Of a stretch of DNA of 536 bases, positions 1-536 are shown piece by piece. The stretch is from Escherichia coli. GTDB taxonomy: Bacteria > Pseudomonadota > Gammaproteobacteria > Enterobacterales > Enterobacteriaceae. The notes below the pieces were generated by a model that saw only the letters and a program-made list of their open reading frames with translations, ran no database searches and was not told the origin of the DNA. The DNA is taken from NCBI RefSeq assembly GCF_003334335.1, contig NZ_QOWQ01000172.1; one strand, 5' to 3'. Made by a program: the position numbers and the translations under genes. Within the stretch, counting starts at the first letter, position 1. The number at the start of each line of letters is the position of its first letter.

Positions 1-530
1 TTTTTTGCCCAGCGATGGATGCTGCCGTCAATGTTTCCGGCATCCACATCACCAGGCCAGAGAGCGTAGGCCAGTTCGTCATCCAGTGTTTTCCATGTCT
101 GCTTGTATTCGCGATGAATGGCAGCAATGACCGGGCTGATTTTTCCTGTTGAATTTTCAGTGTACTGTTGATTGGCTCTGGCGCGGGCGAGATCAACAAC
201 AGACGTGTATTTTCCGGTTTCCTTGCGTTCACCTTCGCGACGTTTTTTCCAGATGCGCATCTCTGCCTGAATTTCGGGCCATTTAGCACCAGGAATACAT
301 TTATGCTTAACCCACCCAATGGCGTGCAACTTAAGCTCCGGATACATGGCGTTAACTTCTGGCATTTTCATCAACGCTTCAACGATATGTCCGTCGAATG
401 TTGCCATGTCTTCCTGCAACAATTCCTGTGCGCTAATAACCATATCAACGGTGATGTTTTCACATGTGTCGAACTTAACCATGACAGCGTTCTGTACTTC
501 AGGGGCCAGCTTGTCAAAAGTGACGTTCAT
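1..530 (-). CDS. Hypothetical protein, function unknown; partial CDS (start codon in window, 3' end beyond window position 1)
   Basis: Reverse-complement translation from the ATG at forward 530-528 gives 176 sense codons with no stop: MNVTFDKLAPEVQNAVMVKFDTCENITVDMVISAQELLQEDMATFDGHIVEALMKMPEVNAMYPELKLHAIGWVKHKCIPGAKWPEIQAEMRIWKKRREGERKETGKYTSVVDLARARANQQYTENSTGKISPVIAAIHREYKQTWKTLDDELAYALWPGDVDAGNIDGSIHRWAK, plus a partial codon. All three plus-strand frames hit stops within the first ~150 nt (e.g. TAG at 64-66, TGA in the other two frames). A 176-codon open frame is unlikely by chance, roughly (61/64)^176, well below 1 in 1000. Codon choice (ctg, gaa, aaa, gcc, atc frequent) fits an enterobacterial coding region. 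The ribosome-binding site would lie beyond position 536 and cannot be seen, so the start is provisional. Confidence 0.8.
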   Translation of the reverse strand, partial: MNVTFDKLAPEVQNAVMVKFDTCENITVDMVISAQELLQEDMATFDGHIVEALMKMPEVNAMYPELKLHAIGWVKHKCIPGAKWPEIQAEMRIWKKRREGERKETGKYTSVVDLARARANQQYTENSTGKISPVIAAIHREYKQTWKTLDDELAYALWPGDVDAGNIDGSIHRWAK

Positions 531-536
531 CGGATC

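Follow-up and report, generated by a model that had tools for sequence, protein, structure and literature searches.

The basic patch encoded in the 536-nucleotide stretch of Escherichia coli DNA analysed here (the window) probably plays a role that is mainly structural and electrostatic: judging from structure models and family conservation, it would form the solvent-exposed, mixed-charge end of the helix that closes a small helical domain, module B, of a prophage exonuclease. I put the probability of this reading at roughly 55%. The patch, residues R193-K208, is an ordinary feature of a known, annotated protein. The features of the window are as follows.

1-536, minus strand: internal fragment of a prophage 'exonuclease' CDS of the YdfE type (codons 100-277 of 823).
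258-527, minus strand: core of module B (residues 103-192), acidic, net charge -8 (from AF2 helices, family consensus and charge).
216-281, minus strand: last helix of module B, residues 185-206, as predicted from AF2, column conservation and helical-wheel angles.
210-257, minus strand: basic segment R193-K208, RIWKKRREGERKETGK, comprising the C-terminal half of the last module B helix plus three coil residues.
99-209, minus strand: low-confidence linker, residues 209-245 (from AF2 pLDDT, alignment rows and column counts).
3-98, minus strand: start of module C (residues 246-277), predicted to be helical (AF2 helices 247-257 and 270-281; NF007259 match from residue 246).

Identity of the gene

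The sole long open frame of the window lies on the minus strand, and its translation is open at both window ends. The DNA is 100% identical to L001:5001-5536, which falls within a CDS (L001:4704-7175) of 2472 nt and 823 aa that is annotated 'exonuclease' in E. coli ATCC 11775 (WP_000048435.1). Phage HannyBb, where the CDS is likewise annotated 'exonuclease', is also 100% identical to the window, and matches to it occur in 4005 of the 5426 complete E. coli genomes. The profile phrog_2082 aligns with the whole protein over positions 1-823 of 823 (E = 0), which places it in the YdfE-type family, and the fragment in the window covers positions 100-277 of the same profile (E 1.7e-135). Orthologues of the YdfE-type exonuclease carry phrog_2082 and phrog_5943, together with the precomputed Pfam entries PF27430 and PF27432. 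The initial annotation had numbered the basic residues R92 to K107, counting from a supposed M1. I reject a standalone small protein beginning there, as the frame runs past both window ends and forms part of the 823-aa CDS; the supposed M1 is the internal Met102, and the segment is really R193-K208.

In E. coli K-12 the corresponding gene is ydfE (b1577, a pseudogene of the Qin prophage; L006:3579-4499), which represents residues 1-256 of the exonuclease at 98% identity. It was truncated by IS2E (IS2) and retains modules A and B with an identical RIWKKRREGERKETGK. Set against YdfE and its intact 823-aa orthologues, the window protein belongs to the same family and occupies the same genomic position, namely the early-left region of a lambdoid prophage, with dicB and ydfD upstream and xis-int downstream (annotations of L001, L002 and K-12 Qin). 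The gene is already known and annotated: it is common in E. coli prophages, and K-12 ydfE is the pseudogene of which it is the intact form. A literature search on ydfE did not find a functional study. Many entries in the databases represent fragments, or fusions to integrase or excisionase, indicating that the exonuclease gene is often decayed in prophages. The orthologue in the Stx2a phage Stx2_14040 / PPompW (L004:1204-3536) carries a pseudogene annotation ('frameshifted by deletion of 4bp').

Neither strand of the window yielded an Rfam match or a meaningful promoter or terminator signal, and a plus-strand feature, for which no Rfam match or promoter-like site was found, was rejected. A terminator-like hairpin with a T-run is present at 223-250 of the plus strand, antisense to the gene. 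Because this hairpin is the complement of the Lys/Arg codons, and its count (1 found, compared with 0.6 +/- 0.9 in shuffles) is within expectation, I rejected it as a terminator. A run of six A residues lies at 245-250 (minus-strand codons W195-K196-K197: TGG AAA AAA CGT). Several protein fragments in the databases change frame at this run (P0147 'RIWKNVAKV', P0150 'NWKNGRTQSAK' and P0177 'PKFRQRCASGKKRREGERK'), which suggests homopolymer indels; these could have arisen in sequencing or reflect true pseudogenisation. For programmed slippage of the known kinds the run is too short.

Composition, fold and conservation of the patch

Translation of the reverse complement of 210-257 gives RIWKKRREGERKETGK, which contains 8 K/R and 3 E (net +5) and confirms the eight basic residues in 16 counted by the initial annotation. 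It is the most basic 16-residue window both in the 178-aa fragment and in the entire 823-aa protein. At least 8 K/R per 16 residues were reached in 0.9% of residue shuffles of the fragment and 2.6% of those of the full protein, and the clustering of K/R is therefore modestly beyond chance (p 0.009-0.026). A net charge of +5, on the other hand, is not unusual (30% of shuffles for the fragment and 56% for the full protein; p 0.30 and 0.56), because three Glu lie inside the stretch. These figures pull in opposite directions on whether the patch is merely a compositional accident, that is, a lineage-specific charged run at a tolerant helix end or linker: the unremarkable net charge favours such an accident, whereas the unusual K/R count speaks against it. 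The patch had also been placed immediately after an acidic region, across a sharp charge switch. However, windows of net -3 to -5 stop about 35-40 residues before it (at residues 20-51 counted from the supposed M1), and the stretch between is already mildly basic (+1 to +3). Thus, the patch does not directly follow the acidic region, and the switch was overstated.

An AF2 model of residues 1-300, built with a 54-sequence alignment, has a mean pLDDT of 88.7 and predicts module A to be alpha/beta, module B to be all-helical, and module C to have helices at 247-296. Within module B, whose core carries the family motifs VxFxxL, LVKYG, DD..F.GH..EA and MYPE, helices are predicted at 111-121, 129-139, 146-156 and 165-178 (pLDDT 94-98), followed by one at 185-205. 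Residues 96-212 modelled alone gave a pLDDT of 92.8 and a pTM of 0.83, with the last helix at 185-206 (H90-111 in model numbering). In the longer model, pLDDT is 96 for residues 191-200; block means then run 71 (201-210), 64 (211-220), 50 and 47 across 201-240, with values below 50 at 226-236. In these models the segment is shown as helical at high confidence; it ends a domain that folds independently, has a linker next to it, and is predicted not to be a free linker or a module of its own.

The proposal that the patch is an inter-domain linker stands in so far as the segment lies at a domain boundary and runs into the low-confidence linker, but the segment itself is mostly the last helix of module B. 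An arrangement of two modules, acidic N-terminal and then basic C-terminal, does not fit the models. The acidic part and the basic stretch both fall in one domain (about 100-206), so that the predicted domain boundary comes after the patch, not before it, and the RecE-like module begins from about residue 246, some 40 residues past the patch. Module B (~100-206) probably corresponds to Pfam PF27432. I was unable to find a significant structural superposition of module B on HTH / sigma region 4, RuvA domain III or phi29 p16.7C.

Burial and exposure along helix 185-206 were deduced from periodicity and conservation. On a helical wheel, W185, I188, M192, W195 and R203 have one face in common, and K197, R198, K204 and K208 point elsewhere. 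The AF2 models contain a helix here, with confidence falling after about residue 200; the initial annotation had named an ordinary buried helix as what would refute its reading, and the residues from K197 onward are probably exposed. R193-K208 would accordingly be read as the exposed, charged tail of this helix.

In the family alignment, W185 is found in 36 of 47 sequences, P186 in 35 of 46 and W195 in 39 of 46, I188 is 100% hydrophobic, and L192 (M192 here) is 93% hydrophobic. The sole family-wide basic positions of the patch are R203 (77% basic) and K204 (55% basic). Columns 196-199 usually have L/I at 196 and K/D at 197, are variable at 198 and often have P (or R) at 199, and columns 196-202 are among the most variable of the domain (entropy 2.4-3.3 bits). 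KKRR as a cluster is confined to close E. coli relatives; WKKR and ERK are kept down to ~44% identity. In 42 homologues the mean for the aligned segment is 4 K/R and net +1.1, with 5.0 K/R and net +2.0 in relatives of at least 40% identity and 3.6 K/R and net +0.6 in those below 40%; the domain core is acidic throughout the homologues (mean net -5). The basic residues are not conserved family-wide at the same positions, and the patch does not show the conservation expected of a nucleic-acid-binding basic patch or an arginine-rich motif. An orthologue at 87% identity reads RNWKKRQDAERKETGK, with the substitutions R199Q, E200D and G201A. In this orthologue the codons of R193, R198 and K204 carry synonymous changes, which argues that part of the cluster is constrained at the level of the protein.

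The variability of columns 196-202 and the three substitutions in so close an orthologue are what a compositional accident would leave behind. However, R203 and K204 are conserved across the family and WKKR and ERK persist to ~44% identity, and I consider an accident very unlikely.

Module B among RecE-like prophage proteins

An exhaustive HMMER search recovered 114 relatives, and the ends of their alignments define modules A (~1-95), B (~96-212) and C (~238-330). The window covers residues 100-277 only, out of an 823-aa protein of five or more modules. A Pfam-A scan of the full protein found only the C-terminal PF16473, an Rv2179c-like DEDDh 3'-5' exonuclease (residues 642-813 matching model positions 2-177 of 177, E 3.4e-67), which lies outside the window; PF27430 and PF27432 over the N-terminus are precomputed accessions only. 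In the PDB, the closest match by sequence is 8kel, an entry with the title 'Exodeoxyribonuclease'. A scan for defence systems with PADLOC returned nothing beyond a generic DEDDh match (E 1.7e-5).

Module B is also found without module A, or behind a RecE-type N-terminus, and what lies downstream of it across homologues (P0123, P0138, P0197, P0203 and others) is a DEDDh nuclease, a PD-(D/E)XK RecE nuclease or no recognisable nuclease. Given these varied contexts, module B is a shuffled, self-contained unit, and the alignments point to domain shuffling among enterobacterial prophage 'RecE-like' proteins. As the homology of relatives typically ends at ~204-226 and module B occurs without A or C, the patch travels with module B.

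What ties this protein to RecE? The K-12 RecE of the Rac prophage and the exonuclease share a middle region (residues 262-627 and RecE 278-592, 39% identity by BLASTP), and they hardly differ around a zinc-ribbon-like CxxC..CxxC segment (550-565). The overall plan is also alike: in both, the nuclease is C-terminal and is preceded by a long N-terminal region whose function is unknown (PMC11611040). However, BLASTP similarity stops at 627, the C-terminus of the exonuclease being a DEDDh/Rv2179c-like 3'-5' exonuclease and that of RecE a PD-(D/E)XK 5'-3' nuclease. The NCBIfam model NF007259 (exodeoxyribonuclease VIII) matches residues 246-623 with 278.1 bits against a cutoff of 1269, and the protein therefore does not qualify as a RecE equivalog. 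Judged by sequence, the exonuclease is a mosaic in which a RecE-like middle is kept and the PD-(D/E)XK nuclease is replaced by DEDDh. Unlike RecE, its gene has no adjoining recT; no recT-like gene was seen beside it in L001 or L002, where xis and int lie downstream. 'RecE-2' relatives, whose role is unknown, have also been mentioned (PMC12315714).

The N-terminal 260 residues, which hold the patch, showed no significant similarity to K-12 RecE (BLASTP; hhalign E 0.24). In a weak hhalign match, RecE 177-221 aligns to the final helices of module B (E 0.24, probability 0.25%), and the transitive link between module B and K-12 RecE through P0212 is likewise weak (E 0.013).

Possible roles of the patch

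In the structural and electrostatic reading, the first turns of the helix (185-196) would pack onto the domain via W185, I188, M192 and W195, and from K197 onward the helix would project past the domain core. Lys/Arg-Glu salt bridges at i/i+3-4 could keep the projecting part helical, and R193-K208 contains seven opposite-charge i/i+3 or i/i+4 pairs. The positive charge of the patch might partly offset both the acidic domain (core -8) and the very acidic protein, whose net charge over 823 aa is -64. The patch would also mark the junction to the flexible linker, which leads to the RecE-like middle and then to the C-terminal DEDDh 3'-5' exonuclease. Any contact of the patch with nucleic acid would be non-specific and secondary.

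Two known kinds of charged helix offer comparisons. Like ER/K single alpha-helices, the segment alternates K/R and E with i/i+3-4 pairs and is predicted to project past a hydrophobic core. True ER/K helices extend for tens of residues, whereas the charged helical part here spans ~10-13 residues (about 196-206), is broken by G201 and is attached to a folded domain. An uninterrupted charged helix of at least ~25 residues was not found in the segment, and the preceding turns carry conserved core residues. Arginine-rich motifs are the second comparison. The N proteins of lambdoid phages are arginine-rich-motif RNA-binding helices, and the patch resembles them in being a short helix, about half basic, that has a Trp next to it and comes from a lambdoid phage. 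Unlike them, it ends a folded acidic domain, is also Lys-rich and contains three Glu. The likeness to N proteins is a lead, the patch having neither sequence homology to them nor a target RNA.

Speaking against a structural role, an element in contact with DNA or RNA could be expected to look just like this, the most basic window of a nuclease-bearing protein of net -64. In close relatives W-[KQ]-K-R...E-R-K is kept, implying some selection on the cluster beyond what structure alone would fully account for. The patch could then be a short basic helix that tethers the acidic exonuclease to the DNA or RNA backbone or aids its loading. Its composition resembles that of arginine-rich motifs, no other cationic island exists in this very acidic nuclease, and the same protein carries both the DEDDh 3'-5' exonuclease (PF16473) and the CxxC..CxxC motif. 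The retention of the cluster in orthologues of 44-87% identity, with synonymous codon changes, is in keeping with such a contact. However, the patch is poorly conserved in the wider family and module B has no DNA-binding fold, and overall a nucleic-acid contact seems rather unlikely.

Directly after the patch, within the linker, lies the motif SVVD[LI]AR[AE][RK]A (residues 211-220; window 174-203, minus strand). It is conserved only in closer relatives (~44-97% identity), even though pLDDT there is ~64, and it may fold on binding. The homology of several relatives stops directly past it, at positions 219-226. Together with the patch it could form a short linear motif for partner docking, by which a protein of the phage or the host (such as an annealase, SSB or a different repair factor) is recruited. 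Conservation of 210-220 in spite of low AF2 confidence is a pattern typical of fold-on-binding motifs, the abrupt end of homology past the motif fits as well, and the pairing of module B with different nuclease types is what would be expected of an adaptor module. Nevertheless, with xis and int in place of a recT-like neighbour, and with the motif absent from distant relatives, I regard docking as improbable.

At this point, a mainly structural and electrostatic helix end is the best candidate for the role of the patch, and as such the patch matters little. A modest residual value remains: no function is known for the N-terminal regions of RecE-like prophage nucleases (PMC11611040), and the analysis defines a confidently predicted, shuffled helical module whose only cationic surface would be the patch. 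Finally, the basic helix end and SVVD[LI]AR might together be the working surface of module B, which would then be a portable adaptor that prophages attach to nucleases (DEDDh, PD-(D/E)XK or none) and that binds nucleic acid or a host or phage partner. Although I consider this unlikely, if true it would offer a first way into the function of the N-terminal regions of RecE-like proteins, which have long gone unexplained.
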